Shown here piece by piece: positions 42,298 through 63,829 of a stretch of 63,829 nucleotides of DNA. Each line of letters starts with the position of its first letter. Position 1 is the first letter of the stretch. The stretch lies in assembly GCA_036273915.1 (NCBI GenBank), contig DASUGR010000015.1, positions 1-63,829 on the forward strand. The letters are read 5' to 3'. The DNA comes from Planctomycetota bacterium. Lineage in GTDB: Bacteria > Planctomycetota > PLA2. The notes under the pieces were generated by a model that did no database searches, had not been told where the DNA came from, and saw only the letters and a program-made list of their open reading frames with translations. A program made the position numbers and the translations under genes.

Positions 42298-42343
42298 GGT
42301 TTCATTCGTATTGTAGGACGGTGTCCCAGCCCGACGAGGCAAA

Positions 42344-42356
42344 GGGGGTCCGGGGG
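42344..42356 (+). repeat. Exact copy of the 13-mer GGGGGTCCGGGGG (intergenic)
   Basis: Read directly, 47 nt upstream of the aconitase-family start codon. Confidence 0.9.
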
Positions 42357-42477
42357 AGGAGCCTCCAATAAACCGGCATCCGCGCTCCGCCGCAAGGGCA
42401 TGCACGCGGCGCGCGTCTCAAACCGGGGCCCGTGCCGGAAGCGCGGGGACGGCGGTCGGCCGTGCCCGGCGCGTGCC

Positions 42478-45195: not shown

Positions 45196-45416
45196 CTGCC
45201 AAGAGTGCCCCCGTCGGTACCCTCAGGGGAGTATACGCGGCCGTGCGGCGCTTGCGGACGTGCGTTTTTCGCCAAAATGCGTGCACGTACCCATGCGACG
45301 GAACGGCCCCCCGCGGGCATGATGGGAATCGGGTTCGGTCCCGAATCCTGTCGACTCCTGTCGCGCGCGCGAGGACGCGACGGGAGCCCGCGCGCCGGAC
45401 ATACTGGGGTGGACGG

Positions 45417-45432
45417 CGGCACGTTCGCCGCC
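45417..45432 (+). promoter_or_regulatory. Weak sigma-54-like element (CGGCACG-N4-CCGC) upstream of the lipoprotein/IPT operon
   Basis: GG and GC are correctly spaced by 10 nt and GGCACG matches the consensus. Both T residues of the -12 TTGC are replaced by C. The element lies about 85 nt upstream of the ATG at 45516. Confidence 0.2.
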
Positions 45433-45515
45433 ACGCGGGCGCGCGCGGCGCGCACGCGGATCCACATGGAATACCGGCTCGCGATCCGACACGCGGGCAC
45501 GATGGAGGTAGGGAC

Positions 45516-45911
45516 ATGAGAAGGCTCCTCGCGATCGGCGCGTCCGTCGCGCTCGCCCTCGTGGCGGGCTGCGGCGGCGACGGCGCCTCCCCGGGTGGCG
45601 GGCAACCCCCGCTCCAGGCGCTCGACCAGCAGACGCTCGTCGTGCAGATGGACCAGAACGGGGACAACGAGCTCGACCTCGTCACGCTCGACATGAGCGA
45701 GAGCCCGTTCGTCATCCTCGAGTGCCTCTACGGCATGCCGGGCGGCGACTTCGAGGACGTGACGGGAACCGTCAAGGGCCGTTCGATCGACCCGGCGGTG
45801 TCCGGGGCGCTCGCGACTTTCATGGGCGGCTCCTTCGGCGTCGCGGACCGCACCGAGCTGGATGTCACGAACTCGAACGGCGACCCGATGCGGGTCGTCG
45901 TCTTCGAATAG
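45516..45911 (+). CDS. Small lipoprotein, unknown function
   Basis: Internal ATG at 45516 has GGAGG 7 nt upstream. MRRLLAIGASVALALVAGCGGDG carries a lipobox. The product is 131 aa. Confidence 0.8.
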   Translation: MRRLLAIGASVALALVAGCGGDGASPGGGQPPLQALDQQTLVVQMDQNGDNELDLVTLDMSESPFVILECLYGMPGGDFEDVTGTVKGRSIDPAVSGALATFMGGSFGVADRTELDVTNSNGDPMRVVVFE

Positions 45912-45921
45912 GAGGCGGGCG

Positions 45922-47565
45922 ATGAGAACCCTTCTGACCCCGCTCCTTTCCGTGCTGCTCCTCGCGGCGGGCGCGTTCGCGCAGTCGATCGACGAGGTGA
46001 AGCCCGCGTGCGCCGCCCCCGGCGACGCCATCCTCCTCAAGGGCAGCGGCTTCTCCGGGTCGCCGGCCGTCCACTTCGGCGCCGCCGAGGCGGAGATCCT
46101 GCGCAGCAGCGAGAGCCGCATCATCTGCCGCGTGCCCGAGGGGCTCGCGGAAGGCGACGTGACCGTCGACGCCGACGGCGCCAAGGCCTCCTTCCACGTC
46201 CTCGCGGAGGGCGCGCCGGCCATCGTCCACGTGAGCGCCGGCACCGCGACGCCCGGCATGCTCGTGTTCTTCGTCGGCGCCCGCCTCAAGGGCGCGGAGG
46301 CCGCGTTCGTGGACGGTGACGACGCGACCGTCGCGACGGTGGAGCTCAAGGGCGGATGGCGAGCCGCGTACCTGAAGGTGCCGGGCGATCTCGCGCCGGG
46401 TACCTACACGGTCGTGATCTCGAACGAGGCCGGCGACTCCGGCCCCTGCTCGCCGACGCTCGTGGTCGTCGAGGAGGGCGAGCCGACCCTCGCGTCGATC
46501 GAGCCGTCGGAGCAGCTGCCCGGACGGCCGGTCCTCTGCAAGGGCACCGACCTCGGCCCGGTGGGGTTCTGCTTCCTCACGTGGACCGACGGGGACGGCA
46601 ACGGACTCTACACGTACGGGTTCACGAACGGCTACGACACGATCCACACGTGGGTGCCGTGGGACGCCGCGGCCGGGGCGACCTACGACGTGACGATCGA
46701 CTTCGCCGACGGATCCTCGACCGAGGGCACGGGCGCGCTCGCGTACACGGTCGGCGTCCCGGAGCCCCCCGAGATCGTCGATCTCGAGTACGAGGAGGGC
46801 CCGCCGGGCAGCCTCGTCACGATCTTCGGGACGAACCTCGTCGGCAGCGGCTTCGCCTGGCCGAGCGTGCTCTTCACGCGCGACGGCAGTTCGACCGAGG
46901 CGCTCGTCTACTACGCGTTCGGAAGCTACCCGGGCGGCGGCCTCGGCGGCGATCCCCTCCACGGCAACGGCGGGCCGAACGCGCTCCAGGGACTCGGCGG
47001 CGACGGCCTCGACCAGATCCTCGTCGAGGTCCCGCGGAGCCTCGAGGATGGGGACTACGACGTCACCGTGACCGTGAACGGGCAGACGTCGGACGCCAAG
47101 GTGTTCACGGTCGTCGACCTGCCGCTCACGGTGACCTCCATGAGCCCGGACAGCCAGGGGCCGTGGGGACCCGAGGGCGTGGTCGTGATCGAGGGCACGG
47201 GCTTCGGCGTGCCGGACTTCGACTTCGTCATCGCCGACGGCAGCGCGGCGAACGGCGTCGCCGGCGACCCGTCCGGCGTCCCGTTCCAACCCTCCTTCAA
47301 GGTGAAGGTGACGTGGCAAAAGGGCGGCGGCGACCCGCTCACGGGCGAGGTGCTCTGGCACCACGACCGCGAGATCCTCGTGATCCCGCCGGGGGGTTGG
47401 GAGCACCCGCTGGCGGTCGGCACCTACACGGTCTACGTCACCGTCGAGCACGACGACGAGAGCACGGAGACCGTCGAGGCCGGCACCTACACCGTCCACG
47501 AGAAGCAGGACGACGGCGGCAGCAACGGCTTCCCGGGCGATCCGGGCGGCATCCTCCGCAAATAG
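45922..47565 (+). CDS. Secreted protein built of IPT/TIG-like Ig-fold repeats
   Basis: Internal ATG at 45922 has AGGAGG upstream. The signal peptide reads MRTLLTPLLSVLLLAAGAFAQS. Repeated units have the form PGDAILLKGSGFSGSP...DVTV, GTYTVVISN and GDYDVTVTVNG. Confidence 0.8.
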   Translation: MRTLLTPLLSVLLLAAGAFAQSIDEVKPACAAPGDAILLKGSGFSGSPAVHFGAAEAEILRSSESRIICRVPEGLAEGDVTVDADGAKASFHVLAEGAPAIVHVSAGTATPGMLVFFVGARLKGAEAAFVDGDDATVATVELKGGWRAAYLKVPGDLAPGTYTVVISNEAGDSGPCSPTLVVVEEGEPTLASIEPSEQLPGRPVLCKGTDLGPVGFCFLTWTDGDGNGLYTYGFTNGYDTIHTWVPWDAAAGATYDVTIDFADGSSTEGTGALAYTVGVPEPPEIVDLEYEEGPPGSLVTIFGTNLVGSGFAWPSVLFTRDGSSTEALVYYAFGSYPGGGLGGDPLHGNGGPNALQGLGGDGLDQILVEVPRSLEDGDYDVTVTVNGQTSDAKVFTVVDLPLTVTSMSPDSQGPWGPEGVVVIEGTGFGVPDFDFVIADGSAANGVAGDPSGVPFQPSFKVKVTWQKGGGDPLTGEVLWHHDREILVIPPGGWEHPLAVGTYTVYVTVEHDDESTETVEAGTYTVHEKQDDGGSNGFPGDPGGILRK

Positions 47566-49258: not shown

Positions 49259-50809
49259 TTACCGTCTGCGCGCGCGGTCGATCGCCTGCTGCGCCTCCGC
49301 GAGCAGGTCGGCGCACGCGCCCGGCCATTCCTTCGCCCTGTTCGTGGCGTCGAGGAACGCCTCGAGCGCATCGTCGACGCGTCCGGCCGCGGCGAGCGAC
49401 ATCGACCGGTGGGCGGGCCAGTCGGGCCGCCCCGGCTCGAGCGCCGCCGCCGCGGCGTAGAGCGTGGCGGCCTCGCCGTAGCGCCCCGCCGCGTGCGCCG
49501 CGAGCGCGAGGTCCCCGGCGGTGCGCGCGCCGCCTCCGTCGAGCGCGACCGCCGCCCACGGACGGTCGCGGAACGCGGGCGACGCGATGTTCCCCCAAGC
49601 CCCGCACAGCACCGCGACCAGGATCACGAGGGCGAAGAGGCCGAGGGTTGCCGCGCGCGAAGGCGGCTTCGGGCGCGGGTAGGGCGGCGGCGCTCCGAGC
49701 GCGACGAGCCGGTCGTAGAGGTGCGGGTGCGTCGCGCCGCGGAAGACGACGGGGACGAGGTTCAGGCGGTAGAGGTCCGCGAGCGCCTCGGCGTAGACGC
49801 CCGGCGCCGGCTCGCACGCCTTCGCGCCCTCGTCCGCGCGCGTCTCGAAGGCGCGGAGCCTCCCGGTGGCGAGCTTCCCCACGAGGACGATGAGCACGAC
49901 CGCGAGGAGCGCGACCGCGAGCCCGCCCGCCGCGACGAGCGGCTTCAGGAGCAGCAGCGGCGAGAGCGCGAGCATCGCCACGAGGCGGGTGCGGCGCGCC
50001 CCCGCCGGCTCGCCCAGGTGCGTGAGCTCGTGCCCCCCGATCGCGAGGATGCTCTTGCGCTCGAGCTTTTCGAGCGCCGAGCGCGTGAAGCCGAGCCGCG
50101 ACGCGAACGGCAGCGCGTACGCGTTCGCCTCCGGCAGCTCGATGATGTGCACGCCAAGGAGCGGGATCCCGGCGCGCGAAGCGGCCGCATGGAGCTCGTC
50201 CGCGATCTCGGGGGGTGCAGGGGGCGCGAGACCGGGCACGCGCGCCATGCGGAAGCCGCCGCCACGCGCGAGCCAGACGAGGACGGGCATCGAGACCGCG
50301 AACAGCGCGGCGCCGTCGACGCCGAAGCGGAAGGGCATCGCGAACGCCACGACGACCATCAGCCACAGGTGCGGATACATGACGAGCACGCGCGTCGCCA
50401 TCCCGAGGAGCGCGCGGCGGAACGTCCAGGCGCTGCCGACGAGCAGGCGCGCGAGCCGGCGGCGCCAGAACACCGCGGCGAGAAGCGACGCGAGCGCCGC
50501 CGCCGCGGCGACGACGCCGTCGCCGCCCAGGAGCCCGCCCCTCGCCCGCGGCACGGTCACGACGAGCGTGGCCGGCAGGGCGATGCTCGCGATCACGAGT
50601 GCTGCGCGCGACGGGTAGAGGGCGCGCGCGCGGACGTGCCACGGCGCGCGGAGCGCGTCGGCGCGGCGCGCGAGCAGGAAGAGCAGCCCGCACAGCGCGA
50701 ACGTGGCGAGGAACGCGACGGCCGCGTAGAGGGCGACGGCTGCCGGAAGCACCCATCCCGGAACGAACCTGTGCACCGCCTCGATCCCCACGGGGCGGGA
50801 TCGTAGCAA
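49259..50809 (-). CDS. Polytopic membrane zinc metallopeptidase (M48/M56-like, HExxH) with a C-terminal TPR-like region
   Basis: ORF track, 516 aa, TTG start; alternative GTG starts lie at 50791 and 50776. It has several transmembrane helices. The motif is AIGGHELTHLGE, and the C-terminal helical repeats read AAHAAGRYGEAATLYAAAAALEP. Confidence 0.75.
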   Translation of the reverse strand: MLRSRPVGIEAVHRFVPGWVLPAAVALYAAVAFLATFALCGLLFLLARRADALRAPWHVRARALYPSRAALVIASIALPATLVVTVPRARGGLLGGDGVVAAAAALASLLAAVFWRRRLARLLVGSAWTFRRALLGMATRVLVMYPHLWLMVVVAFAMPFRFGVDGAALFAVSMPVLVWLARGGGFRMARVPGLAPPAPPEIADELHAAASRAGIPLLGVHIIELPEANAYALPFASRLGFTRSALEKLERKSILAIGGHELTHLGEPAGARRTRLVAMLALSPLLLLKPLVAAGGLAVALLAVVLIVLVGKLATGRLRAFETRADEGAKACEPAPGVYAEALADLYRLNLVPVVFRGATHPHLYDRLVALGAPPPYPRPKPPSRAATLGLFALVILVAVLCGAWGNIASPAFRDRPWAAVALDGGGARTAGDLALAAHAAGRYGEAATLYAAAAALEPGRPDWPAHRSMSLAAAGRVDDALEAFLDATNRAKEWPGACADLLAEAQQAIDRARRR

Positions 50810-54674: not shown

Positions 54675-55394
54675 ATGATCTCGTGCGTGGTGACGACGAA
54701 GGCCAGGACGGCCGATCCACGCGAAGTGCCCATCTATCCGGTGGCGCTGGCCGCGTTCTGCCTCCACGGGATCCCGCAGAGCACGCTGCGGGCGTGGGTG
54801 TTCGGCCAGGGCAACTTCCGGTCCGTGATCACGCCCCACGACAAGTCCGGGCGCCTGCTCTCGTTCGTCAACCTCGTGGAGGCGCACGTCCTCGCCGCGA
54901 TGCGTCGCACGCTCGGCCTCAACATGCCGAAGGTGCGCCTCGCGATCCGGAACGTGTCGCGCGAGCTCGGGATCGAGCGGCCGCTCGCGAACGCGAGGTT
55001 CCGGACGGACGGCGTGGATCTCTTCGTCGAGGAGCTCGGCCAGGTGAAGCTCGCGTCGGGCGACTTCCGGCAGACCCTGCTCACGGACATCGGGGCTTTC
55101 CTCAAACGCGTGGAGTGGGACGCGCACGACCTGGCCAAGAGACTGTTCCCCTTCCCGCGGCACCTCGACCTCGCCGGAATCCGCGAGGCCGACCCGCCGA
55201 GGCTCATCTCGATCGACCCGCGGGTCCAGTTCGGCCAGCCGGTGCTCGCGGGAACGCGCATCCCGACGGCGACGATCGCCGAGCGGTTCTTCGCCAACGA
55301 ACCGATGGCGGCGATCGCCGGGGACTACGGCATCTCCCTTGATCTCGTCGAGGCGGCCATCCGTTGGGAGCAGCCGAGGGAGAAGGCAGCGTAG
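54675..55394 (+). CDS. DUF433-domain protein with an extended N-terminal domain (putative antitoxin)
   Basis: ORF track, 239 aa. The C-terminus (IDPRVQFGQPVLAGTRIPTATIAERFFANEPMAAIAGDYGISLDLVEAAIRWE) matches the DUF433 pattern. The N-terminal roughly 170 aa are additional. Confidence 0.75.
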   Translation: MISCVVTTKARTADPREVPIYPVALAAFCLHGIPQSTLRAWVFGQGNFRSVITPHDKSGRLLSFVNLVEAHVLAAMRRTLGLNMPKVRLAIRNVSRELGIERPLANARFRTDGVDLFVEELGQVKLASGDFRQTLLTDIGAFLKRVEWDAHDLAKRLFPFPRHLDLAGIREADPPRLISIDPRVQFGQPVLAGTRIPTATIAERFFANEPMAAIAGDYGISLDLVEAAIRWEQPREKAA

Positions 55395-55804
55395 GGCCGG
55401 TCTTCTTCGTCGAGGCCGGTCTCGGCGCCTACCGCGTCCCCGACGGGCTCGAGGCTGCGGGGGCGCACGTCGAGCGCCACCGCACCCACCTGCCCCAGGG
55501 AGCGCCGGACGCCGACTGGATCAATCTCGCGGCGAAACGCGGCTGGGTCGCGCTCACGAAGGACCGCTTCCACATGAGGAAGGGGGACCGGCTCGAGCGC
55601 GAGGCGATCCACGCGTCTGGCCTGCGCGTGTTCGTTTTGCGATCCGCGAATCTCACGGGCGACGAGATGGCGAAGGCGTTCGAGCGGGCGCTGCCTCGGA
55701 TGAAGGCCATGGCGGCCGCACATCCGGGCCCGTTCATCGCGCGCGTCCACAAGGACGGCCGCGTCACGATGTGGCGCGAAGGCGACGGCCTGCTCCGACC
55801 GTAG
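55364..55804 (+). CDS. DUF5615/Mut7-C PIN-like protein (putative toxin partner of DUF433)
   Basis: ORF track, 146 aa. The TTG start overlaps the upstream gene by 31 nt. FFVEAGLG...DADWINLAAKRGWVALTKD resembles the DUF5615 family that typically follows DUF433 genes. Confidence 0.65.
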   Translation: MGAAEGEGSVGPVFFVEAGLGAYRVPDGLEAAGAHVERHRTHLPQGAPDADWINLAAKRGWVALTKDRFHMRKGDRLEREAIHASGLRVFVLRSANLTGDEMAKAFERALPRMKAMAAAHPGPFIARVHKDGRVTMWREGDGLLRP

Positions 55805-55811
55805 CTCGGTG

Positions 55812-58800
55812 TCACTTCGGCCGCTTCATGGCGATCGTCGCCTCGCCGGCGGCGACGCGGTGGGTGAGCGATCCGTAGAGGCCAGTGCGGTCCCGCGCGG
55901 AGAGCGCCGCCGATTCGAGGTCCTCGGGCACGAGGATCTCGAACCTGCCCTGCGCGTCCGAGAAGGCCTCGTACGACAGGCGGGACTCGTCCGCCGCGGA
56001 GACCCGCGCGCCGGACACGGGCTTGCCGTCCGGGCCCACGACGGTGCCGCGAAGCGGGATGCCCGTCCGGCACCGCATCTCGATCTCCTGGCCGTTGGCC
56101 GTGACGCGTTGCGACTTCGGCCCGACGAACCCCAGCGCGCGGGAATCGACCTGGCACCACACGAGGATCTCCTCGTCCGGCGCGTTCGCGATCGACACGC
56201 GGCCGTCGGCGCCGGTCTCGACCGATCCATCGGGAAGCGACGGGGAACAGCCGACGCTTGCCCCCTCGAGCGGCGTCCCGTCGGGCGCCAGCACGCGGAC
56301 GGTGATCTTCCTGTCGTACGGTCGAGGCTCCACGCGGATGACGACGTCCCGCGCCCCAGCCAGGACGTCGCGCACCTCGCCATGGATGTCAGCTCTTTGG
56401 ACCAGCGTTCCGCCCGCGGCCTGCGAAGGCTTGTACCTGGCCGTCACGTGGATGTCCGCGACGCTACCGGGAGGGACAACGAGGCGGAATCGTCCGTGCC
56501 CGTCCGTGGTAACGAACTCCGAGACCCCGGGCTCCCGGCGCCCCTCGACGACCGCCTTGGAGATCGGCGTCCCGTCCGCGTCCGTGACCATGCCGCGGAT
56601 CTCCTCCCAGCGCGGGAGGACGAACCGCGCCTCAGTCGCGTCCTCCGGAAGATCGGTGATGGGGCTCACATGTCCGTACGGCGAGGCCTGGGGCCCGTGC
56701 ACCTTCTCGATCCGGCCGGAGACTCCGGCCTCCGCGCGGCCGAACGCGTCGGAGCGCGCGAAGGACGCGCCGCCCGCATGGTCGATGCAGATCTGTGCGC
56801 CCGTGACGGGCGCCTCCGCATCGTCCGTGACCCAGACGACGAACGTCCGTTCCACGGGGAACATGAACCGGACGTCGAGCACGTCCTCGTCGCCGACGCG
56901 GACGGTTTGCGAGGCTCGCTTGTCGGTGCCTCGCGAGACCGAGAGGCGGTACGTTCCCGGCGAGACGTCCGGGAACTGGAACCGTCCGAGGTCGTCCGTG
57001 AAGCGGCCCTCGCCGCGGAAGAAGGCCCGGTCCGCGAGGAGCAACACGAACGCGCGCGCGACCGGGGAGCCGGCGGTGTCCTGCGCAACCCCCGCAATGC
57101 GAAGGCCCCGCGGCAACACGATGTCGCCGACCTGGGTGGTCCCGTTCGCCGTTTCGAAGTTGATGACGTGCAGCCCGTGGTCCCGCGCCTGCACGACGAG
57201 CGAGTGCGGTGTCTTGGCCTCGAGCGGCGTCAGCCGGAACGTCCCGTCGCTGCCACTGGTCGCATGCGCACGACTGAGCGGCACTGCCGGCGAGCCCCTT
57301 TTGTCACCGAGCGCCGAGAGTGCGGCACCGGCCACCGGCCGGCCGTCCGCGTCGAGAACTCGCCCGTAGGCGTCGATCCCCTTCTGGAGCGAGAAGTCGT
57401 GCTCGGTGGCCGCGCCCAACCTGGCCCACGCCATGACGTAGCCGTCGGCTACGGCGTAGATGGTCTCGTCCTCGCCCGTCCACCCGTTGAGACGGTACGT
57501 TCCATGGGCATCCGTTCGGGTGTCGGGGGAGAGGCGCTGGCCGATCCCGACCTGCGCGGCGGCGATGGGGCGTCCGGTCGCGGCGTCCACGACACGTCCC
57601 GTTCGCATCCGTCCCGCCGGAAGCACGTACTCGACCTCGGCTCCCGCGCGGGTCTCGATCCAGAAGCCGCTCCCATAGTCAGGATGGACGGCATTGACCA
57701 TCACGAGCGTGTCCTCGGGGAAGCGATCGAACGTCGCCCGGCCCTGCGCGTCTGAGTACGCGGTCCGCTCGATCTCAATGTCGCGGGTCCCCTTGACATC
57801 GACCTCCGCGGCCTCAACCGGGCTGCCGGATTGGTCTGTGACTCGGACGACGAGAACGCCCGGCCGTGGAAGCACGACGCGAACGCGCCCGCCCGCCTGG
57901 AGACGGGGGATCTCGATCGTCGCGCAGCCCCTGGCGGACGCGCGGAGCCACACCTCCTGCGCAGGCTCGAGCCGAATCCGGAACGTCCCGTCCTCCGCGC
58001 TCCTGGTGCCCGGACCGTCGATGCCGGCGTCGGCCTCCGGACGATACATGGCCACGCGGCGGTACGGATACGAGACCGTCCGCAGCTCCGCGCCCGCGAT
58101 GGGACTGCCCGCGCGGTCCACCACGATGCCGTGCAGGTCGCGCTCGCGGTCCACCGCGTTGAAGTCCACCGGGTCAGGCAACGCCGGCGCCGGCGGGAGC
58201 GATGCCTCGGCCTCGCGCGGTGCCGGCGCACGCGCGGTTTCCGCGCGCGGCGGCGGGCCGCTGCCCCCGGAGCCCCCCCACTTCACGGCCGCAAGGGTAA
58301 GAAGAATGCAAACGACGGCCGCCACCGCGACCTTGGCTTTCGCGCTCATCAACGCCACCCCCGCCACGGACACCTTGCGCGGGTCCATGGCCAACAATGC
58401 CAACAGGGGAAGCCATGAGCGGTTGCCGCCGCATTGGGCGTCGAGCCGCGCGCGCAGCATCGCGAGCCCGCGCTTGAGCCGCGTGCGCGCGGTCTCCTGC
58501 GGCACCCGCAGCCGCGCCGCCAGCTCGCGGACGGAGAGGTCGTGGAAGTAGTGCAGCACGATCGCCGTCCGGTAGGGCTCGTCGAGCGCCCGCACCGCCT
58601 CGACGACCCGCCGCTGCACCTCGATCAGCTGGAGCGCCTCGTCCGCCGGGCCCACCGCCTCCGGCCGCGCCGCGCGGAGCTCGCGCTCCCTGCGGCGCCG
58701 CTCGCCGCGGCGCGCCATCCGCGACAGGTTCCGCGCCACCGCGCCGAGCCAGCCGCGCAGATTCGGGCCCTCCGGCGGCCGTTCCATCGCGGCCAGCAGC

Positions 58801-58913
58801 GCCTCCTGCACGACGTCCTCCGCGGCGTCGTCGTCGCGGAGGAGCCCCTTCGCGATCGCGCGCAGGAAGGCGCGGTGCTCGAGCAGCGCCTCGGGCTCCG
58901 GCATCTCCGCCAT
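55812..58913 (-). CDS. Second ECF sigma factor / transmembrane helix / CarboxypepD_reg-like array fusion (paralogue of 42478..45195)
   Basis: ORF track, 1033 aa. Sigma region 2 reads LLEHRAFLRAIAKGLLRDDDAAEDVVQEALLAAM. Region 4 reads YRTAIVLHYFHDLSVRELAARLRVPQETARTRLKRGLAMLRARL. The transmembrane helix is VAVAAVVCILLTLAAV. About 820 aa of repeats follow (SAEDGTFRI, DAQGRATF, DAHGTYRL, GSDGTFRL, DGHGRFRL, DAQGRFEI). Confidence 0.87.
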   Translation of the reverse strand: MAEMPEPEALLEHRAFLRAIAKGLLRDDDAAEDVVQEALLAAMERPPEGPNLRGWLGAVARNLSRMARRGERRRRERELRAARPEAVGPADEALQLIEVQRRVVEAVRALDEPYRTAIVLHYFHDLSVRELAARLRVPQETARTRLKRGLAMLRARLDAQCGGNRSWLPLLALLAMDPRKVSVAGVALMSAKAKVAVAAVVCILLTLAAVKWGGSGGSGPPPRAETARAPAPREAEASLPPAPALPDPVDFNAVDRERDLHGIVVDRAGSPIAGAELRTVSYPYRRVAMYRPEADAGIDGPGTRSAEDGTFRIRLEPAQEVWLRASARGCATIEIPRLQAGGRVRVVLPRPGVLVVRVTDQSGSPVEAAEVDVKGTRDIEIERTAYSDAQGRATFDRFPEDTLVMVNAVHPDYGSGFWIETRAGAEVEYVLPAGRMRTGRVVDAATGRPIAAAQVGIGQRLSPDTRTDAHGTYRLNGWTGEDETIYAVADGYVMAWARLGAATEHDFSLQKGIDAYGRVLDADGRPVAGAALSALGDKRGSPAVPLSRAHATSGSDGTFRLTPLEAKTPHSLVVQARDHGLHVINFETANGTTQVGDIVLPRGLRIAGVAQDTAGSPVARAFVLLLADRAFFRGEGRFTDDLGRFQFPDVSPGTYRLSVSRGTDKRASQTVRVGDEDVLDVRFMFPVERTFVVWVTDDAEAPVTGAQICIDHAGGASFARSDAFGRAEAGVSGRIEKVHGPQASPYGHVSPITDLPEDATEARFVLPRWEEIRGMVTDADGTPISKAVVEGRREPGVSEFVTTDGHGRFRLVVPPGSVADIHVTARYKPSQAAGGTLVQRADIHGEVRDVLAGARDVVIRVEPRPYDRKITVRVLAPDGTPLEGASVGCSPSLPDGSVETGADGRVSIANAPDEEILVWCQVDSRALGFVGPKSQRVTANGQEIEMRCRTGIPLRGTVVGPDGKPVSGARVSAADESRLSYEAFSDAQGRFEILVPEDLESAALSARDRTGLYGSLTHRVAAGEATIAMKRPK

Positions 58914-58981
58914 GGCTTCTACCCCTTCCTTGCCGCCGGCGCCATCGGGGGGTTCGGACGGCGGGGCGCGCGAACGCTAGA

Positions 58982-61099
58982 ATGCCCCCCGTGCGGAAGG
59001 CGGTCGGGCTCCTCGTCCTCGCGACGCTCGCGAGGGGGGGCGGCGATCCCGAGGCCTTCGCGAAGGGCCTCGCCGGCATCCGAGACCTCCTCGCCGACGG
59101 CAAGTGCGCGCGCGCCCAGAAGGTGCTCGACGACCTCCTCCAGGAACACGCGAAGGCGCCCTACGCGGTCGGCCGGCGCGTCGAGATCGAGGAGATGGCG
59201 AAGCAGATCGTCTTCGGGACCACGGTCGAGCCGCCCGACCCGAAGAAGCTGGTTTCCGGCAACCTCGAGCAGTACGACGCGCGGACGGGCACGCTGCGCA
59301 TCCGCTACACGCCGTCCACGATGAAGGACTGGACCTTGGTGAAGCACCTGTGGGTCCACCCCGCGACCTTCAACGGCTCCCACTCGATCACGATCAAGGG
59401 GGAGGAGAACGCGAGCAGCGGGATGATCCTCGTCTGTCTCAACAACCAGGAGGGGATGATCGCCCACCTCTGCAGAGGCGCGGAGGAGCGGGCTTCGATC
59501 TCGCGCATCTATCCTGAGGGAATGGCCATGCTGGCGAGCGCGCCGTCGACCTTCGCGGAGGGCGCGAGCTACACGGCGAAGGTCTCTGTCAACCGCACGT
59601 CGGTCCAGCTCCTCTCCGGCGGCCGCGCCCTCGTGCGCGCGCCGAAGAAGGCCGACGAGTGGGGCATGCTCGCGGTCAGCGCGTTCAAGTTCGAGGAGAT
59701 CCTGATCGCCGGGAAGGCGGAGCCCTCGTGGATCCAGGGGCTCGTCGACGCCGAACGCCAACGCCTCCTCGCGGAGTTCGGGAAGAGGTGGGACCCGAAG
59801 GGCCACCTGCCCCCCTGGCTCTACGGGGCGCCCGCCGCCGCGCCGGCGCTCGCGCTCGCGCGGCCGGACGCTCGCGAGTGGCCTGTTCTCCTCGATGCCG
59901 AGGCGGGTGCGATCGTCGACCGGGTCGTCGCGCTGAGCGGGAAGGGCGAGGCGGCCGCTGCGCTCCGGCTCCTCGCCGAGTCGCGGACCGAGGCCATCCC
60001 CGCCGCCTCCCTGCACTACCTCCGCGGGCTGCTTCTCGAGCAGCTGGGGCATCACGAGGAGGCGATCGCCGCGTGCCGTGCGGTGAGGGAGGCCGAGCCT
60101 GACTTCGCCCCCGTCGTCCCGATCGAGGCGAGCGCGCTCTTCGCGCTCGGCCGCGCGGAGGAGGCGATCGTCCTCTACCGCGCGTTGCTCGGGCGCTTCC
60201 CCGGAAGCCCCGAGCTGCACGCGCAGGCCGCCCTCTTCCTCGGCGCGGCCGGCAAGTGGGACGAGGCCGAGATGATGCTGCGCGGCGCCGCGCGCGCCGG
60301 CGTCACGTCCGACGAGCTCGACGTCGTGGGCCGGCAGGTGCACAAGGCGCTGCACGGCCCCGCGTGGCAGCGCCGGCACGACTACCAGACGTCGCACTAT
60401 CTCGTGCTCTCCGACATGGACCCGAAGGTCTGTTTTGAGGCGTCGCAGATCCTCGAACAGGCGTATGCCGTCTTCGTCTCGCGCCTTGAGCGCGCGCCCT
60501 CGACGACGGAGCGGTTCAGGGTGTTCCTCTTCTCGGGCCAGGCCGGCTACCAGGACCACGTCAAGGACCTGTTCGGATCGACGGCGCCCCACACAGCGGG
60601 GCTCTACGCGCCGCCGCTGCGCCAGCTCTTCATCTGGAACCTCCCCGAGCGGGAGGACATGATGCGGACCGTCCGGCACGAGGGGTTCCACCAGTACCTC
60701 CACCGGATCATGGACGACCCCCCGCTCTGGTTCAACGAGGGGCTCGCGGAGTACTTCGAGGAGGCGAGGGTCGTCCGCGGCGTCTGGACGACGGGGGATC
60801 CGCGCCACGACCACCTCGCGCTGCTGGTCGCCCCCCAGCCCCTGAAGGACTTCCTGTTCCTCGACCGCGGCGCGTTCATGCGGCGCGCGTTCGTGAACTA
60901 CGCGCAGGCCTGGGCGTTCATCCACTTCCTCCTCCACTCGACCCGGGAGAACCGCCAGTTGTTCGACCGCTTCTGGGACTCCTTCAAGCGGATCCCGTCG
61001 AACGCCGACGCCATCCGCGACGCGCTCGGCGATCGCCCGATCGACTCTGTCGACGGGGAGTTCCGGGTGCACGTGGAGGCTTTGCGGAGGCTCCGGTAG
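58982..61099 (+). CDS. Secreted TPR-containing protein with a C-terminal DUF1570-like HExxH (putative metallopeptidase) domain
   Basis: ORF track, 705 aa, with a signal-like N-terminus VRKAVGLLVLATLARG. TPR-like helices occupy the middle. The C-terminus reads VRHEGFHQYLH...WFNEGLAEYFE, resembling DUF1570 and MA-clan peptidases. Confidence 0.75.
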   Translation: MPPVRKAVGLLVLATLARGGGDPEAFAKGLAGIRDLLADGKCARAQKVLDDLLQEHAKAPYAVGRRVEIEEMAKQIVFGTTVEPPDPKKLVSGNLEQYDARTGTLRIRYTPSTMKDWTLVKHLWVHPATFNGSHSITIKGEENASSGMILVCLNNQEGMIAHLCRGAEERASISRIYPEGMAMLASAPSTFAEGASYTAKVSVNRTSVQLLSGGRALVRAPKKADEWGMLAVSAFKFEEILIAGKAEPSWIQGLVDAERQRLLAEFGKRWDPKGHLPPWLYGAPAAAPALALARPDAREWPVLLDAEAGAIVDRVVALSGKGEAAAALRLLAESRTEAIPAASLHYLRGLLLEQLGHHEEAIAACRAVREAEPDFAPVVPIEASALFALGRAEEAIVLYRALLGRFPGSPELHAQAALFLGAAGKWDEAEMMLRGAARAGVTSDELDVVGRQVHKALHGPAWQRRHDYQTSHYLVLSDMDPKVCFEASQILEQAYAVFVSRLERAPSTTERFRVFLFSGQAGYQDHVKDLFGSTAPHTAGLYAPPLRQLFIWNLPEREDMMRTVRHEGFHQYLHRIMDDPPLWFNEGLAEYFEEARVVRGVWTTGDPRHDHLALLVAPQPLKDFLFLDRGAFMRRAFVNYAQAWAFIHFLLHSTRENRQLFDRFWDSFKRIPSNADAIRDALGDRPIDSVDGEFRVHVEALRRLR

Positions 61100-61120
61100 G
61101 CTCCGCGCCCGGGAGCCGGG

Positions 61121-61133
61121 GGGGGTCCGGGGG
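61121..61133 (+). repeat. Exact copy of GGGGGTCCGGGGG in a convergent spacer (within a longer G8-TCC-G5 element starting at 61118)
   Basis: Read directly, between the stops at 61099 and 61153. Confidence 0.9.
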
Positions 61134-61152
61134 CGCGCATCGGATGACCACG

Positions 61153-63829
61153 CTACTTCGCGGGCTGCGGCTGGTTCTTCTCGAGCACGATCGACACGCC
61201 GTCGGCGCCCGCGGCGGCCTGGACCGTTGCGGGCTTGTACTCGTTGCCGGGGACCCAGACCTGGAGCGTCACGGTCGCGCCCGTCGGCAGGCCGCGCAGC
61301 TCGAAGCTCCCGTCGTCGCCGACCATCGCGCCCGAGATCCACTGGTTCTCGCCGAGGCGTGCGTTGACGTACACGCGCTGGCCCGCCTGCAGCGTGATCG
61401 GCCGGCCCGACGCGTCGGTCACGCGGCCGCGGATCGTCAGCGCGCGCTCGTAGCGGAGCGTCTGCGGCGGCATCCCGGTCCGGACCAGAGTCTGCGGCAG
61501 CACCTCGTCCTTCTGCTGCTGCGCCTGGAGGAGGTACTCGCCGGGGAGCAGCGACCCGAAGCGGAACTTCCCCTCGCCGTCGGTCACGGCGCTGTTCATG
61601 CTCCAGCCGCCGAGGTAGTTCCACGCCTGGCCGCCCCGCTGCTGCCAGTCCCGGATCTTGTCCTGCGTCTCCTTGCTCGTGGGCTGCACCGAGACCCAGA
61701 GCCGCGGCCCCGGCGTCCCGTCCGCCTTGAGCAGCTTGCCCTCGATCACCTCGCCCGCGGAGAGGCGGATGGTCGCCGGCGCCCCGCCCGCGACCGCGCG
61801 CTGCGACCCCGGCGTGTAGCCCGCCGCGATCGCCATCACCTCGACCTCCCCGTCGCCGACGCCCTTGATCTCGAACTCGCCGCGCCCGTTCGTCGTCGCC
61901 GACGGCGCGGACTGCTGCCCCGCCTGCTGGTAGGGCTGCCCTCCCTGCGCGGGCTTTTGCGGCTTCACCTCGAGCGGCATCGCGATCACGCCCGCGCCGG
62001 GCACGGGCCTCCCGCGCTCGTCCTCGACCTTCCCCCGGAGCCCCTTTCCTTCCGTCACGACGATCCTGAGATCCTCGGTGCCGGCCGCGACGGCCTCGAC
62101 GCGCTTCTTCTCGAAGCCGGTGCCCTGGTTCCAGTACTGCTGCGTGTTGGGCTCGACCTCCACGGCGTAGGAGCCCGCGGCGATCTGCCCGATCCGGAAC
62201 CGCCCGTTCGACTGCGTCTGGCCCCGCTGCGGCTGCTCGCCGCGCTCCTTCGGGATGATCACCGAGACCTGCGCGTTCGCGACGGGGCTCCCGCTCTCGG
62301 TCACGACGACGCCCGCGATCGCGAGCGCCGGCTCGATCACGATCTTCACGCCCTCCGCGCCGGCTCGCACCTCCTGGCTCTCGACCTTGCCCTCCGGGTG
62401 GTAGGCGAAGATCACGTACACGCCGTCGCCGACGCCGGAGATCTCGAAGCTCCCGTCGAAGCCGGAGTAGGTCGTCTGCGAGGCGCGCGTCTCGAGCGTC
62501 GGCTGCCCCTGCTGCTTCTGCTCCGTCTTCGGCGCGAGCGTGACCGGAGCGTTGATCGCCGGTCCGCCGCTCGCGAACTCGACGCGGCCGCGCACGAAGC
62601 CGCCCTGCGCGAGCACGAGCCGGAGGTCCGGCGACGGCATGCCCTCCTTCGGCAGGTCGAACGGGTCGCCGATCGAGACCGAGAACCCCTGCTTCACCGC
62701 GACCGCCACGAACTTCTGGCTCGCCCAGTAGTCGCCGGTCCAGTTGCCGGCGGAAGCGCTGAAGCGGCCCTGCTCGTCGGTCGTCGCGCCGCCCCACGCG
62801 CTGCCCCGCGTGTACTGCTGGAGCTGCTGCTCGAGCTGGTTCTGCGGGAGGAGATAGACGCGGGCGCGCGCCACCGGGTTGCCCTTCTCGTCCTCGACGA
62901 CGCCGGTGACGCCCTGCTTCTTGGCGTCGAGGTCGACCTCCGCGATCTTGCCCGCCTCGATGCGGAACGGGTCCGACTTCGCCTGCGGGTTGTTCGACTG
63001 GAGGACGGTGTCCTCCATCGGCGGCACGTTGGTCAGCTCGAACGCGCCGAGGTCGTCCACGATGCCGTTGACCCAGTTCGTGCCGACCTGGAGGTAGACG
63101 TTCGGCCGCTGGTACGGCTCCGGTTCCCCCACGCCGAGGATCCGCCCCCGGACCCCCCCCGTGGCCAGGAGCTCGAGGCGCTGCTCGGGCACCGCGGTCT
63201 CGCCGTCCACGAAGAAGTCGATCGTGACGGGCTGGTTCCCCTGCGCGTACCGCGTCGCGAGCCGCGCGCCGTTCTCGCCCTTCGCCTCGAGCGCGTACGT
63301 TCCCTCCGTCACGAAGGCGAACTCGAAGCGGCCGGCGTCGTCCGTCCGCACGGCGTCGACGTCGGACATCCCGCGCCACTGGCGCTGCATCCGGAGCAGC
63401 GCGATGCTCGCGCCCTTCGCCGGCTCCTGCGTGTCCGCGTAGACCGCGATGCCGCGCACCGCGATGCCCTTCGGGAGCCTGATGTCGTACCGGATCTCCT
63501 TGCCGGTCTCGACGAGCGCCGTCGGGAGGTCGAACGTGTCCGGGCCCGCGACCTGGCGCCCGCACTGCGGGTGCTCGACGGCGGCGGTCTGCACGCCGCC
63601 GGGGTAGACCTCGAGCCGGTACGCGCCGTTCTCGTCCGCCTCGCCCTTCGCGACGCCGCCGATGCCGCCGCGCTCCCATGCGCTGGTCGAGACCATGACG
63701 CGCGCGCCCGCGAGGGGCGCGCCGCCGGCGTCGACGACCGTGCCGAGGATGATCCCCGCCGGCCGCAGCTCCAGGCGCACGAACTTCTGCGCGGGCACCT
63801 GGGCCCAATGGCGCGCCTCCGGGTAGCCC
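61153..63829 (-). CDS. Very large CarboxypepD_reg-like beta-sandwich repeat protein. The 5' end runs off the window.
   Basis: The ORF track lists 61153..63798, but the frame stays open to the window edge (GYPEARHWAQ precedes the listed start). It has at least nine repeats of about 85-95 aa containing G-x-V/I-x-D, for example DENGAYRL, DDAGRFEF, DEQGRFSA, SNGRFRI, NGRGEFEI, DGEGKFRF and DDGSFEL. Confidence 0.85.
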   Translation of the reverse strand, partial: GYPEARHWAQVPAQKFVRLELRPAGIILGTVVDAGGAPLAGARVMVSTSAWERGGIGGVAKGEADENGAYRLEVYPGGVQTAAVEHPQCGRQVAGPDTFDLPTALVETGKEIRYDIRLPKGIAVRGIAVYADTQEPAKGASIALLRMQRQWRGMSDVDAVRTDDAGRFEFAFVTEGTYALEAKGENGARLATRYAQGNQPVTIDFFVDGETAVPEQRLELLATGGVRGRILGVGEPEPYQRPNVYLQVGTNWVNGIVDDLGAFELTNVPPMEDTVLQSNNPQAKSDPFRIEAGKIAEVDLDAKKQGVTGVVEDEKGNPVARARVYLLPQNQLEQQLQQYTRGSAWGGATTDEQGRFSASAGNWTGDYWASQKFVAVAVKQGFSVSIGDPFDLPKEGMPSPDLRLVLAQGGFVRGRVEFASGGPAINAPVTLAPKTEQKQQGQPTLETRASQTTYSGFDGSFEISGVGDGVYVIFAYHPEGKVESQEVRAGAEGVKIVIEPALAIAGVVVTESGSPVANAQVSVIIPKERGEQPQRGQTQSNGRFRIGQIAAGSYAVEVEPNTQQYWNQGTGFEKKRVEAVAAGTEDLRIVVTEGKGLRGKVEDERGRPVPGAGVIAMPLEVKPQKPAQGGQPYQQAGQQSAPSATTNGRGEFEIKGVGDGEVEVMAIAAGYTPGSQRAVAGGAPATIRLSAGEVIEGKLLKADGTPGPRLWVSVQPTSKETQDKIRDWQQRGGQAWNYLGGWSMNSAVTDGEGKFRFGSLLPGEYLLQAQQQKDEVLPQTLVRTGMPPQTLRYERALTIRGRVTDASGRPITLQAGQRVYVNARLGENQWISGAMVGDDGSFELRGLPTGATVTLQVWVPGNEYKPATVQAAAGADGVSIVLEKNQPQPAK
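63145..63157 (-). repeat. Reverse-complement copy (CCCCCGGACCCCC) of the 13-mer; the only exact copy inside a CDS
   Basis: Read directly; it encodes part of GGVRGRILG in the repeat protein. Confidence 0.85.

Follow-up and report, generated by a model that had tools for sequence, protein, structure and literature searches.

In the window, a 63,829-nucleotide stretch of a metagenome-derived Planctomycetota genome, a single gene codes for an ECF sigma factor fused to a membrane anchor and a long extracytoplasmic rod. The protein (55812..58913, minus strand; 1033 amino acids) consists, in this order, of an ECF sigma factor, a 33-residue juxtamembrane segment, one transmembrane (TM) helix, a Pro/Ala-rich linker, and about nine beta-sandwich domains. 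We propose, with a probability of roughly 0.6, that it is a type II membrane-tethered ECF sigma factor with a CarboxypepD_reg rod that would be released by regulated proteolysis, by analogy with IutY and SCO4117. In bacteria, ECF sigma factors constitute the third major route of signal transduction; a planctomycete genome encodes tens of them, with regulation that is largely uncharacterized. The locus stands for a very large clade of about 1,800 clusters, in which a sigma factor is wired through the membrane to a beta-sandwich rod without an anti-sigma domain. The architecture, the topology signals, the conservation, and the size of this family are direct results of our analysis.

The first-pass annotation had described an ECF-sigma/TM/beta-sandwich fusion at 55812-58913, and this fusion proved genuine by Pfam, NCBIfam, a single TM peak, and fused homologues. 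The ORF list contains one unbroken reading frame with exactly these coordinates, running from an ATG at 58913 (an alternative ATG four codons in, at 58904, is possible) to a stop codon at 55812-55814. An assembly or frameshift artifact merging two genes, one for a sigma factor and a downstream one for a membrane protein, is conceivable for a metagenome contig whose very high GC content (71%) makes long spurious ORFs in other frames, but it is effectively refuted by several lines of evidence. The coding signature is uniform, with codon-position GC even along the whole ORF, junction included (about 0.73 at position 1, about 0.5 at position 2, and 0.80 to 0.99 at position 3), and this GC3 periodicity supports a complete CDS. 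The region near 58330-58430, where the earlier reading had placed a possible break, corresponds to residues 161-194, the linker between sigma4 and the TM helix, and it is contiguous in five independent assemblies with 81-86% identity (L004, L005, L006, L009, and L010). Full-length homologues show 54-57% identity at 100% coverage, and fused homologues number in the hundreds, more than 100 of them full-length proteins of 800-1600 amino acids. Homologues elsewhere are fused and not split, as would have spoken against the fusion, and the few short matches are contig-cut fragments. Since the junction is intact in five assemblies and many long homologues are fused, we conclude that 55812..58913 is one real gene and not an assembly artifact.

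By domain content, the N terminus amounts to an entire ECF (group 4) sigma factor, predicted to be functional. Region 2 spans residues 7-81 (58671..58895, minus strand) and region 4 residues 90-161 (58431..58646, minus strand); Pfam places Sigma70_r2 at residues 12-74 (39.0 bits; cutoff, 24) and Sigma70_r4_2 at residues 101-153 (41.2 bits; cutoff, 25.7), and the NCBIfam model TIGR02937 (sigma70-ECF) reaches 73.9 bits (cutoff, 42.9). Pfam matches to Sigma70_r3 and r1 are absent from the fusion protein, and two planctomycete-specific NCBIfam sigma subfamilies stay below their cutoffs, namely, TIGR02984 Sig-70_plancto1 (38.6 versus 183.75 bits) and TIGR02989 Sig-70_gvs1 (44.1 versus 124.55 bits). 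In the AF2 model, residues 7-81 are helical with a pLDDT of >90 and further helices occupy residues 90-161; sigma2 ends at residue 81 and sigma4 begins at residue 90, which is the ECF layout with a short linker, here bearing the family-conserved motif AARPE (residues 81-85). The best structural matches of this part in Foldseek are the ECF sigma factors SigL, SigE, AlgU, and SigW. When residue conservation of the sigma core was scored across 63-113 homologues, D33, Q36, and W55 of region 2, which also contains the motif DVVQE, were invariant in the family, and L110, P113, R115, and R148 of region 4 were invariant or nearly so. Given the retention of D33, Q36, W55, R115, and R148 and the ECF fold match, the sigma part looks functional, and the alignments indicate strong purifying selection on its core residues. 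Residues 1-160 contain no cysteine, the first being C161; among 141 relatives, the sigma core has no cysteine in 110 and one in 31.

Between sigma4 and the membrane lies a cytoplasmic juxtamembrane segment (residues 162-194; 58332..58430, minus strand), delimited by conservation in 113 homologues and by AF2. It carries the motif GG(D)RxAW..ALLPL(A), followed by some 10 variable positions and then by G185..M-S-x-K-x-K. In the 113 aligned homologues, W167 is kept in 92, L171 in 96, G185 in 93, K192 in 61, and K194 in 65. A short helix is predicted at residues 168-175 (pLDDT, 63-78), and the segment has a pLDDT of 36-48 in the full-length model. For residues 162-194, Pfam and NCBIfam gave no match and the HxxxCxxC motif is absent; a search of both databases for a FecR-type or ZAS zinc finger anti-sigma domain between sigma4 and the TM helix found none, and at about 33 residues, the segment is too short for such a domain.

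The TM helix (residues 195-213; 58275..58331, minus strand) is the single hydrophobic peak of the protein (Kyte-Doolittle 19-residue window, 2.24). It is rich in Ala, Val, and Leu and ends in the conserved W212, and the AF2 helix spans residues 187-213. About 115 of 120 homologues, and 122 of 132 representatives, show this peak at the same place, directly after sigma4. The helix is also Ala/Gly-rich; at positions 206 and 208 of the alignment, about 30 of the 113 homologues have Gly, and helix-destabilizing residues appear to be only moderately frequent. Under the positive-inside rule, the sequence fits a single-pass, N-in/C-out (type II) topology, because the sigma factor must be cytoplasmic, K192 and K194 precede the helix, and W212 and the Pro-rich linker follow it. 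This extracytoplasmic linker, rich in Pro, Ala, and Gly (residues 214-249; 58167..58274, minus strand), has conserved prolines in the family alignment and is predicted to be disordered, with a pLDDT of <50 over residues 214-228 and 206-238 in two AF2 models. Model and alignment together make it a candidate site-1 cleavage region.

The single hydrophobic peak at residues 195-213 sets an extracytoplasmic part of 820 residues (214-1033), in agreement with the original estimate of about 820. Its folded portion (residues 250-1033; 55815..58166, minus strand) opens with the conserved motif PxPVDxxxxDRERDLHGxVVD and comprises about nine tandem CarboxypepD_reg/transthyretin-like beta-sandwiches. Pfam detects eight stretches of CarboxypepD_reg (PF13620; E value, 2.7e-67), and AF2 predicts an all-beta array of about nine domains with a pLDDT of mostly 85-97 and a pTM of 0.63. 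Foldseek matches it to tandem CnaB/prealbumin-like arrays of pilins, a TIE protein, SdrD B repeats, and macroglobulin MG domains, and in the model the ectodomain looks like a rod of structural beta-sandwiches. The first-pass annotation had seen a family of one-component TM sigma factors whose sensing specificity has diversified. The family stands, with many fused relatives; the diversified sensing is presumptive, and Foldseek recognized no ligand-binding or enzymatic domain in the ectodomain.

That family is indeed large, as a count suggested earlier has now established. With the N-terminal 215 residues as the query, 1,792 cluster representatives were found at an E value of ≤1e-30 (clusters at 50% identity). 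The top-scoring ones are, by a wide majority, long proteins in which sigma4 is directly followed by a TM helix; among the new top matches, 115 of 141 have at least 500 residues. Arrays of CarboxypepD_reg domains occur in 50 of 59 sampled relatives (85%), and a minority carries other ectodomains, namely, FGE-sulfatase and beta-lactamase, on the same sigma-TM module. Ectodomain length and repeat number vary, with a range of 570-1640 amino acids across the family. Its hallmarks, in Planctomycetota, are the sigma core, the AARPE linker, the sequence GGDRxAW..LLPL ... G..MSxKxK, and one TM helix. The retention of the sigma-TM module in about 1,800 clusters and its pairing with CarboxypepD_reg domains in 85% of those sampled argue for long-term selection of this pairing.

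A second member, locus 1, lies in the same window (42478..45195, minus strand; 905 amino acids) and by Pfam, hydrophobicity, and alignment has the same sigma-TM-CarboxypepD_reg plan, with Sigma70_r2/r4_2 and a TM helix at residues 185-203. The claim that the present gene (locus 2) is its diverged paralogue held up in pairwise alignment. The two share the motif LLEH..FLRA.A..LL.D..A.DVVQEA, by which they had been linked, and are 43% identical over the N-terminal ~200 residues of the sigma module (E value, 1e-28), while the ectodomains are barely alignable (weak local matches, 26% over 174 residues; E value, 0.007). The suggested variation in ectodomain repeat number was likewise evident, with three CarboxypepD_reg stretches in locus 1 versus eight in locus 2. 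Over the N-terminal 330 residues, identity falls to 34%, and most relatives from other organisms are nearer (35-49%). Judged from these alignments, locus 1 is a true but old paralogue, and we rejected a local duplication as the source of the two copies, since locus 1 is more distant than most relatives from other organisms.

Among previously described sigma factors, the ECF01-Gob group also has extensions that contain a TM segment. ECF57 averages 5.3 members per genome. These groups, like the duplicated clusters that Pinto and da Fonseca described in 2020, resemble our family in phylum, in the many paralogues, and in the lack of an anti-sigma gene, and our two loci repeat the planctomycete ECF pattern of conserved sigma2 and sigma4 with large, poorly conserved C-terminal extensions (PMC7671368, PMC7826278). 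However, ECF57 is described as having WD40-like repeats along with a conserved pair of cysteines that links sigma2 to sigma4 (PMC8999054), whereas the fusion protein has no WD40 match in Pfam and its family no conserved sigma-core cysteine, which sets it apart from ECF57/ECF01-Gob by their published description. Closer in topology is IutY of Pseudomonas putida (ECF243), which also has an N-terminal cytoplasmic ECF sigma factor, a single TM helix, an extracytoplasmic C terminus, and no separate anti-sigma factor, and which provides the experimental precedent for sigma release by sequential proteolysis (PMC5411451, PMC8999054). Unlike the fusion protein, IutY contains a FecR-type anti-sigma/sigma-regulator domain and receives its signal from a TonB-dependent receptor; where it has the FecR periplasmic domain, the fusion protein has a 780-residue beta-sandwich array. 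The actinobacterial groups ECF52 (SCO4117), ECF48, and ECF53 similarly combine an ECF core with a membrane-spanning C-terminal extension that includes a long extracytoplasmic tail, and proteolytic activation has been proposed for them, but they differ in their bacterial phylum and in having a ZAS anti-sigma segment and one to two TM helices (reviewed in PMC8999054). By analogy only, SigI/RsgI of Clostridium thermocellum and Bacillus (RsgI in PMC9732909) comprise multiple paralogous membrane sensors with varied extracellular modules, which control alternative sigma factors and whose action involves regulated intramembrane proteolysis; there, sigma factor and sensor are separate, and the sensor has an anti-sigma domain and carbohydrate-binding or IDR modules. 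Stand-alone carboxypeptidase regulatory-like proteins of Planctomycetota share the type II N-terminal TM anchor, the low-complexity linker, and the CarboxypepD_reg array, but their cytoplasmic tail measures only some 5-20 residues and a sigma domain is lacking. Both ECF sigma factors with regulatory or membrane-spanning C-terminal extensions and planctomycete paralogues with unrelated large extensions have been published (PMC7671368, PMC7826278, PMC8999054). The fusion concept is therefore not new; the family is a large uncharacterized variant within a class already known, that of sigma factors with a sensor extension of their own, and the locus extends this class rather than opening a new one.

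Considering these features, we infer inhibition by tethering, proteolytic release, a signal, and a regulon, and we propose the following model. In the intact protein, the sigma domain would be held at the membrane, away from productive use by RNA polymerase. As the protein has no anti-sigma domain, tethering itself would be the inhibitory principle, possibly with help from the conserved helix of the juxtamembrane segment. A site-1 cut, within the disordered linker or close to it, would be permitted by an event at the ectodomain, after which a site-2 intramembrane protease would cut the Ala/Gly-rich TM helix and free a sigma domain of about 20 kDa. This domain could then switch on a regulon, maybe including its own gene and neighboring envelope genes. 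The disordered 35-residue linker on the membrane side fits this scheme, being the kind of region that is trimmed before a site-2 protease acts; IutY is processed by Prc and RseP and trimmed to about 50 periplasmic residues (PMC5411451). Against the model, the characterized precedents all carry an anti-sigma domain, which the fusion protein does not, the ectodomain has no recognized ligand-binding or enzymatic domain, helix-destabilizing residues in the TM helix are only moderately frequent, conserved synteny links no site-1 or site-2 protease to the gene, and a neighboring DUF1570 gene is kept among close orthologues only. If proteolytic release is confirmed, no simpler way of controlling a sigma factor across the membrane would be known; the protein would be a bacterial counterpart of membrane-tethered transcription factors of the SREBP, ATF6, and Notch type, and it would help to show what planctomycetes detect at their unusual envelope.

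Proteolysis would be dispensable if the sigma factor were active while tethered, in the manner of ToxR or CadC, with RNA polymerase recruited to membrane-proximal DNA and the ectodomain modulating activity by way of oligomerization or conformation. We regard this as unlikely, even though neither an anti-sigma domain nor a linked protease was found and the strongly conserved juxtamembrane segment could pass conformational signals. A sigma factor must enter the RNA polymerase holoenzyme and travel with the open complex, and the link between sigma4 and the membrane measures only about 33 residues; to our knowledge, no sigma factor active in the tethered state has been documented. ECF sigma factors of the planctomycete Tuwongella immobilis were found in detergent-soluble rather than cytosolic fractions (PMC8567305), as such a mode would allow, but every characterized fused membrane ECF sigma factor is released by proteolysis (PMC5411451, PMC8999054). 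A further reading places the control signal within the juxtamembrane segment, whose helix W167..LLPL might be a minimal anti-sigma element packing on sigma4/sigma2 and freed by a conformational change, as in ECF41 or ECF238, while the membrane anchor would do no more than position the sensor. Conservation of this motif is high, its short helix (168-175) is predicted with moderate confidence, and the C-terminal extensions of ECF41 and ECF42 touch the sigma core (PMC7826278, PMC8999054). Nevertheless, about 12 hydrophobic residues stand against the roughly 80-90 of a class I anti-sigma domain, and the low pLDDT in the full-length model points the same way, so we hold this version to be very unlikely as a full account; it need not conflict with the proteolysis model and could hold alongside it.

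The architecture could also be an evolutionary by-product, in which a duplicated sigma module landed on the N terminus of a type II membrane-anchored CarboxypepD_reg surface protein whose ectodomain is structural or adhesive and does not signal; the sigma factor would then be controlled solely by its own expression level or be functionally inert. Such an origin matches the "fortuitous insertion" model of Pinto and da Fonseca for planctomycete ECF extensions (PMC7671368), the structural look of the ectodomain, and the existence of sigma-less ectodomain homologues with the same N-terminal TM anchor (P0027, P0029, and P0264), the first two of which have no sigma gene upstream. The retention of the sigma-TM module and juxtamembrane motif across the family, mostly with CarboxypepD_reg domains, and the purifying selection on the sigma core argue against it, and we consider it improbable. 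Our preferred reading therefore remains a tethered sigma factor released by proteolysis.

No co-transcribed anti-sigma gene was found, the neighbors of the fusion gene being convergent or divergent, and no site-1 or site-2 protease is tied to it by conserved synteny. A divergent intergenic region of 68 bp (58914..58981, no strand assigned) separates it from the next gene and, in an alignment of four orthologous upstream regions, holds a conserved element, CGAACCCC-N14-GGCAAGGAAGGGGTAGAAGCC, just ahead of the sigma ATG. Within the window, the composite pattern occurs this one time, against 0 occurrences expected by chance, and it may be a promoter or 5' leader. The element lacks the classic ECF signature GGAAC-N16-CGT and has no second copy in the window, so that neither autoregulation nor a regulon finds support. 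The divergently transcribed gene (58982..61099, plus strand) encodes a 705-residue TPR-DUF1570 protein with a signal-peptide-like N terminus, TPR repeats, and a metalloprotease-like DUF1570 domain (HEGFH...NEGLAEYFE). It is syntenic with the fusion gene in the close orthologous loci L004, L006, and L009, with HExxH kept in L004, and missing beside the more distant homologues P0006 and P0007; its candidacy as a target gene product or site-1 protease is speculative. The CarboxypepD_reg ORF that follows (61153..>63829) was considered as a third fusion and rejected, as it is of the stand-alone type without a sigma domain; its orthologues, P0264 among them, are sigma-less, with an N-terminal TM anchor and a CarboxypepD_reg array. 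In a distant genome (L002), a 1027-residue sigma-less CarboxypepD_reg paralogue likewise adjoins the fusion gene, after P0006. From these adjoining paralogues, one may draw a more elaborate scenario, which we judge quite unlikely: an undescribed ECF group with a direct tether, in which the rod would monitor a surface structure formed by the sigma-less paralogues, and failure of that structure or strain in it would expose the linker to a periplasmic protease (the TPR-DUF1570 HExxH protein being a candidate), leading to S2P release as a self-monitoring checkpoint of the envelope or of surface assembly.

Locus 2 (55812..58913, minus strand) is a real, well-conserved gene: its ORF of 1,033 codons, which starts with ATG in the ORF listing, is exactly the one that the first-pass annotation had delimited, and the description given there of the locus held in every particular. 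It carries the codon-position signature of the window's real genes (GC3 of 0.80 to 0.99, GC2 of about 0.5), unbroken over its full length and through the sigma/transmembrane (TM) junction. Because the window has a G+C content of 71%, many long spurious ORFs arise in other frames. Three very long ones (up to 1,646 aa), at 58919..63808 (minus strand, 1,629 aa), 40579..45519 (plus strand) and 55809..57755 (plus strand), are superimposed on real genes in another frame or strand and were rejected as Arg/Gly/Ala/Pro-rich artefacts of this base composition.

Pfam assigns Sigma70_r2 to residues 12 to 74 of the product and Sigma70_r4_2 to residues 101 to 153, followed by eight CarboxypepD_reg stretches (E = 2.7e-67). 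The protein passes the general ECF model of NCBIfam, TIGR02937, with 73.9 bits against a cutoff of 42.9, and it scores far under the cutoffs of all specific NCBIfam subfamily models. One hydrophobic segment, at residues 195 to 213, follows sigma4. AlphaFold2 models of residues 1 to 330 (63-sequence alignment, mean pLDDT 84.7) and of the full-length protein (34 sequences, pLDDT 84.5, pTM 0.63) resolve sigma2 helices (residues 7 to 81), sigma4 helices (90 to 161), a short helix (164/168 to 175) with a poorly defined stretch after it, the TM helix (187 to 213), a disordered Pro/Ala-rich linker (about 214 to 249) and an all-beta ectodomain (250 to 1033). The ectodomain parses as about nine sandwiches of ~85 residues, a count that we took from the model, as a regular-expression count of repeats was too crude. 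In Foldseek searches, the N-terminal model matched the solved ECF sigma factors SigL, SigE and SigH of M. tuberculosis, AlgU, SigW and E. coli sigmaE, and ECF sigma factors are matched at the sequence level too. The full-length model matched tandem CnaB/prealbumin-like arrays, namely, those of Gram-positive pilins, of the B. anthracis TIE protein, of SdrD B repeats and of macroglobulin MG domains, all of them structural stalks rather than enzymes or modules known to bind ligands. Since lysines precede the TM helix and the sigma domain must be cytoplasmic, the predicted topology is N-in/C-out (type II). Only about 33 residues lie between sigma4 and the membrane, a stretch far too short to hold a class I anti-sigma domain, with no match in Pfam or NCBIfam.

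The fusion itself is genuine. In a tblastn search with residues 1 to 215, five independent assemblies showed a contiguous junction, at 81 to 86% identity. They comprise a metagenome contig from JGI (L004), a MAG from NCBI (L005), an assembly from Logan (L006), the MAG Planctomycetaceae bacterium PLA2 (L009) and Planctomycetota MAG.302 (L010), in which the contig end is reached at residue 207. A word-indexed search returned 257 homologues. In nearly every one of the 120 listed, Sigma70_r2/r4_2 and CarboxypepD_reg occur together in a protein of 800 to 1600 aa, and about 115 of these 120 have their hydrophobic peak at residues 185 to 230, directly after sigma4. Those that are named carry the title 'sigma-70 family RNA polymerase sigma factor [Planctomycetota bacterium]'. 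With the junction supported in five assemblies and homologues fused elsewhere, an assembly artefact that joined a sigma gene to a membrane-protein gene is effectively excluded. Homologues of the ectodomain without a sigma domain do occur (proteins P0027 and P0029); for P0029, the interpretation as a split gene with the sigma gene upstream was rejected, as it has no adjacent sigma gene.

The family signature emerges from 113 homologues aligned over their first ~290 residues and was confirmed in further alignments. The canonical sigma residues D33, Q36, W55, R61, N62, L110, P113, R115 and R148 are invariant or nearly so, and AARPE is conserved within the sigma2-sigma4 linker, a normally variable region. 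Past sigma4, a motif is conserved that reads (H)GG(D)RxAW..ALLPL(A), in which 92/113 sequences have W167 and 96/113 have L171. After it come about 10 variable residues, G185 (93/113), M-S/T-x-K-x-K, the TM helix and W212 (84/113); PxPVDxxxxDRERDLHGxVVD opens the ectodomain. An exhaustive phmmer search with residues 1 to 215 only, against 1.84 billion representatives at 50% identity, gave 54,241 matches at E ≤ 1e-3 (generic ECFs), 12,891 at 1e-10 and 1,792 at 1e-30. Among the best 150 matches were 141 new proteins, 115 of them of at least 500 aa; in the 132 that reach at least 270 aa, a TM peak directly follows sigma4 in 122 and the W..hhPh motif is found in 102. The short matches inspected end within or just past the TM helix and are thus fragments cut by contig ends. 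Pfam found the sigma domains in all of 59 of these proteins, picked by N-terminal similarity alone, and CarboxypepD_reg in 50, with FGE-sulfatase in three and beta-lactamase in one; P0070 likewise joins this sigma-TM module to FGE-sulfatase. A family with the architecture of locus 2 exists, as the first-pass annotation had proposed, and the search and the sample together indicate that the sigma-TM module has been co-inherited with its beta-sandwich array across long evolutionary distances, with occasional replacement of the ectodomain. Array length ranges from about 570 to 1640 aa, a wide variation. One MAG, GCA_021776735.1, has at least four paralogues composed of sigma, TM and an extension on the two contigs examined, including 11566..13653 of contig L007 and 3695..6295 of contig L002 (both minus strand). 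The extension of one paralogue from this MAG, of 695 aa, faintly matches SQHop_cyclase_C, a prenyltransferase-like repeat, and not CarboxypepD_reg.

Locus 1 (42478..45195, minus strand) follows the same plan in 905 aa, with a TM helix at residues 185 to 203 and three CarboxypepD_reg stretches. Its N-terminal ~200 residues are 43% identical to those of locus 2 (E = 1e-28), which agrees with the homology of the sigma parts seen at first pass, and the ectodomains have diverged to marginal local matches. Full-length, composition-adjusted BLASTP did not align the sigma parts, whereas the N-terminal ~215 aa alone did align. Over the first 330 residues, locus 1 is 34% identical to locus 2, whereas most members of the family in other organisms are closer to it (35 to 49%); the two copies in the window are thus old paralogues and not the result of a local duplication. 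Orthologues of locus 2 share 81 to 86% identity in the first 215 residues and 54 to 57% overall, which by arithmetic implies roughly 50% in the ectodomain; the part outside the membrane therefore evolves far more quickly than the sigma core.

Among ECFs fused to a membrane segment, IutY alone has been characterised: experiments have established that Prc trims it to about 50 periplasmic residues before RseP cleaves it (PMC5411451). The same proteolytic route has been proposed for SCO4117/ECF52, ECF48 and ECF53 (PMC8999054). Control through a C-terminal extension ranks second in frequency among the types of ECF regulation (19/157 groups), and a planctomycete genome has 5.3 copies of ECF57 on average (PMC7826278). 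Planctomycetes have many ECF paralogues, with conserved sigma2 and sigma4 and large unrelated extensions (PMC7671368). The locus 2 family may work like the IutY/ECF52 class, but it lacks the anti-sigma domain that defines that class. With ECF57/ECF01-Gob it shares phylum and lifestyle. The extensions of ECF01-Gob are said, by Jogler et al. in 2012, to include a TM segment as well. Compared by description, however, ECF57/ECF01-Gob has WD40 repeats and two conserved cysteines (PMC8999054), both absent from the locus 2 family. Our literature search found no paper linking CarboxypepD_reg with sigma factors, and the word 'carboxypeptidase' is absent from two ECF classification papers. Locus 2 belongs to a known class, of which it is an uncharacterised variant, and the literature already contains the concept. 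The structural reading made at first pass was right, with the ECF sigma, TM and beta-sandwich domains and the family all found; the functional one, a diversification of sensing, is plausible.

The protein almost certainly consists of a complete, conserved ECF sigma factor, a single TM helix directly after it, no anti-sigma domain and a long beta-sandwich rod, with the disordered juxtamembrane linker outside the membrane and a cytoplasmic juxtamembrane segment that is strongly conserved across the family. From this architecture, the absent anti-sigma domain, the linker and the juxtamembrane conservation, we infer a tethered, inactive sigma factor that is released by proteolysis. In this scenario, tethering would keep sigma inactive, possibly with help from the conserved W..LLPL helix; regulated proteolysis would begin with a site-1 cut within or close to the linker, and intramembrane cleavage by an S2P protease would then free sigma. 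We give this overall explanation a probability of roughly 0.6; the proteolytic step, argued by analogy, is about an even bet.

There are also competing explanations. The sigma factor might act while still tethered, in a ToxR-like manner, or a built-in anti-sigma helix might restrain it in a purely conformational way. According to the model of Pinto and da Fonseca (PMC7671368), the fusion would be a by-product and the ectodomain would not signal, a view that is weakened by the long-term co-inheritance of the sigma-TM module with its array (the 1,792 representatives and 50/59 sampled proteins).

Before the start of locus 2, at 58914..58956 (minus strand), lies a conserved non-coding element, CGAACCCC-N14-GGCAAGGAAGGGGTAGAAGCC-ATG, which is common to four orthologous loci (the window, L004, L005 and L006); the composite CGAACCCC-N14-GGCAAGGAAGGGGTAGAAGCC occurs once in the window. 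The element has a GAACC-like box, and we found in it neither the canonical ECF -10 CGT nor a match to the classic GGAAC-N16-CGT. An ECF-type autoregulated promoter found no support, given the missing CGT -10 box, and as the element and its 9-mer core show no meaningful recurrence in the window, there is no evidence for a regulon.

By its layout, locus 2 appears monocistronic, and no anti-sigma-like gene is co-transcribed with it among its neighbours. Converging on its 3' end is an overlapping DUF433 (HTH)/PIN_10 pair (54675..55394 and 55364..55804, plus strand), a probable type II toxin-antitoxin module. Divergent from it, at a distance of 68 bp, is a gene for a 705-aa TPR and DUF1570 protein (58982..61099, plus strand), predicted to be a secreted zinc metalloprotease from its signal-peptide-like N terminus and the conserved metalloprotease-like motif HEGFH...NEGLAEYFE. 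The block DUF1570, fusion, PIN_10 and DUF433 is syntenic in L004 (57% protein identity), and the DUF1570 gene adjoins the fusion also in L006 and L009. A conserved protease linkage was rejected, the DUF1570/TPR gene being syntenic in close orthologues only and absent beside the homologues P0006 and P0007 (37 to 40% identical) of the MAG GCA_021776735.1. Beyond the DUF1570 gene, a CarboxypepD_reg ORF with six or more repeats (61153..>63829, minus strand) runs into the contig end and lacks its N terminus. It was rejected as a third sigma fusion, because a sigma domain is missing from its full-length orthologues (about 1,110 to 1,145 aa, e.g., P0264). At their start, a short cytoplasmic tail leads into a TM anchor and then a low-complexity linker, so that they match the design of the fusion's ectodomain without the sigma part. 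In L002, P0006 is followed by a similar array protein of 1027 aa, again lacking a sigma domain. Between locus 1 and locus 2 lies a gene for a 516-aa Peptidase_M48 and TPR protein (49259..50809, minus strand), a BepA/HtpX-like envelope metalloprotease. An IPT/TIG-repeat surface protein (45862..47565, plus strand) adjoins locus 1, and two Ser/Thr protein kinases, one with TPR, are encoded at 11184..13364 (plus strand) and 37084..38838 (minus strand); such kinases and surface proteins are typical of planctomycete signalling and surface gene content.
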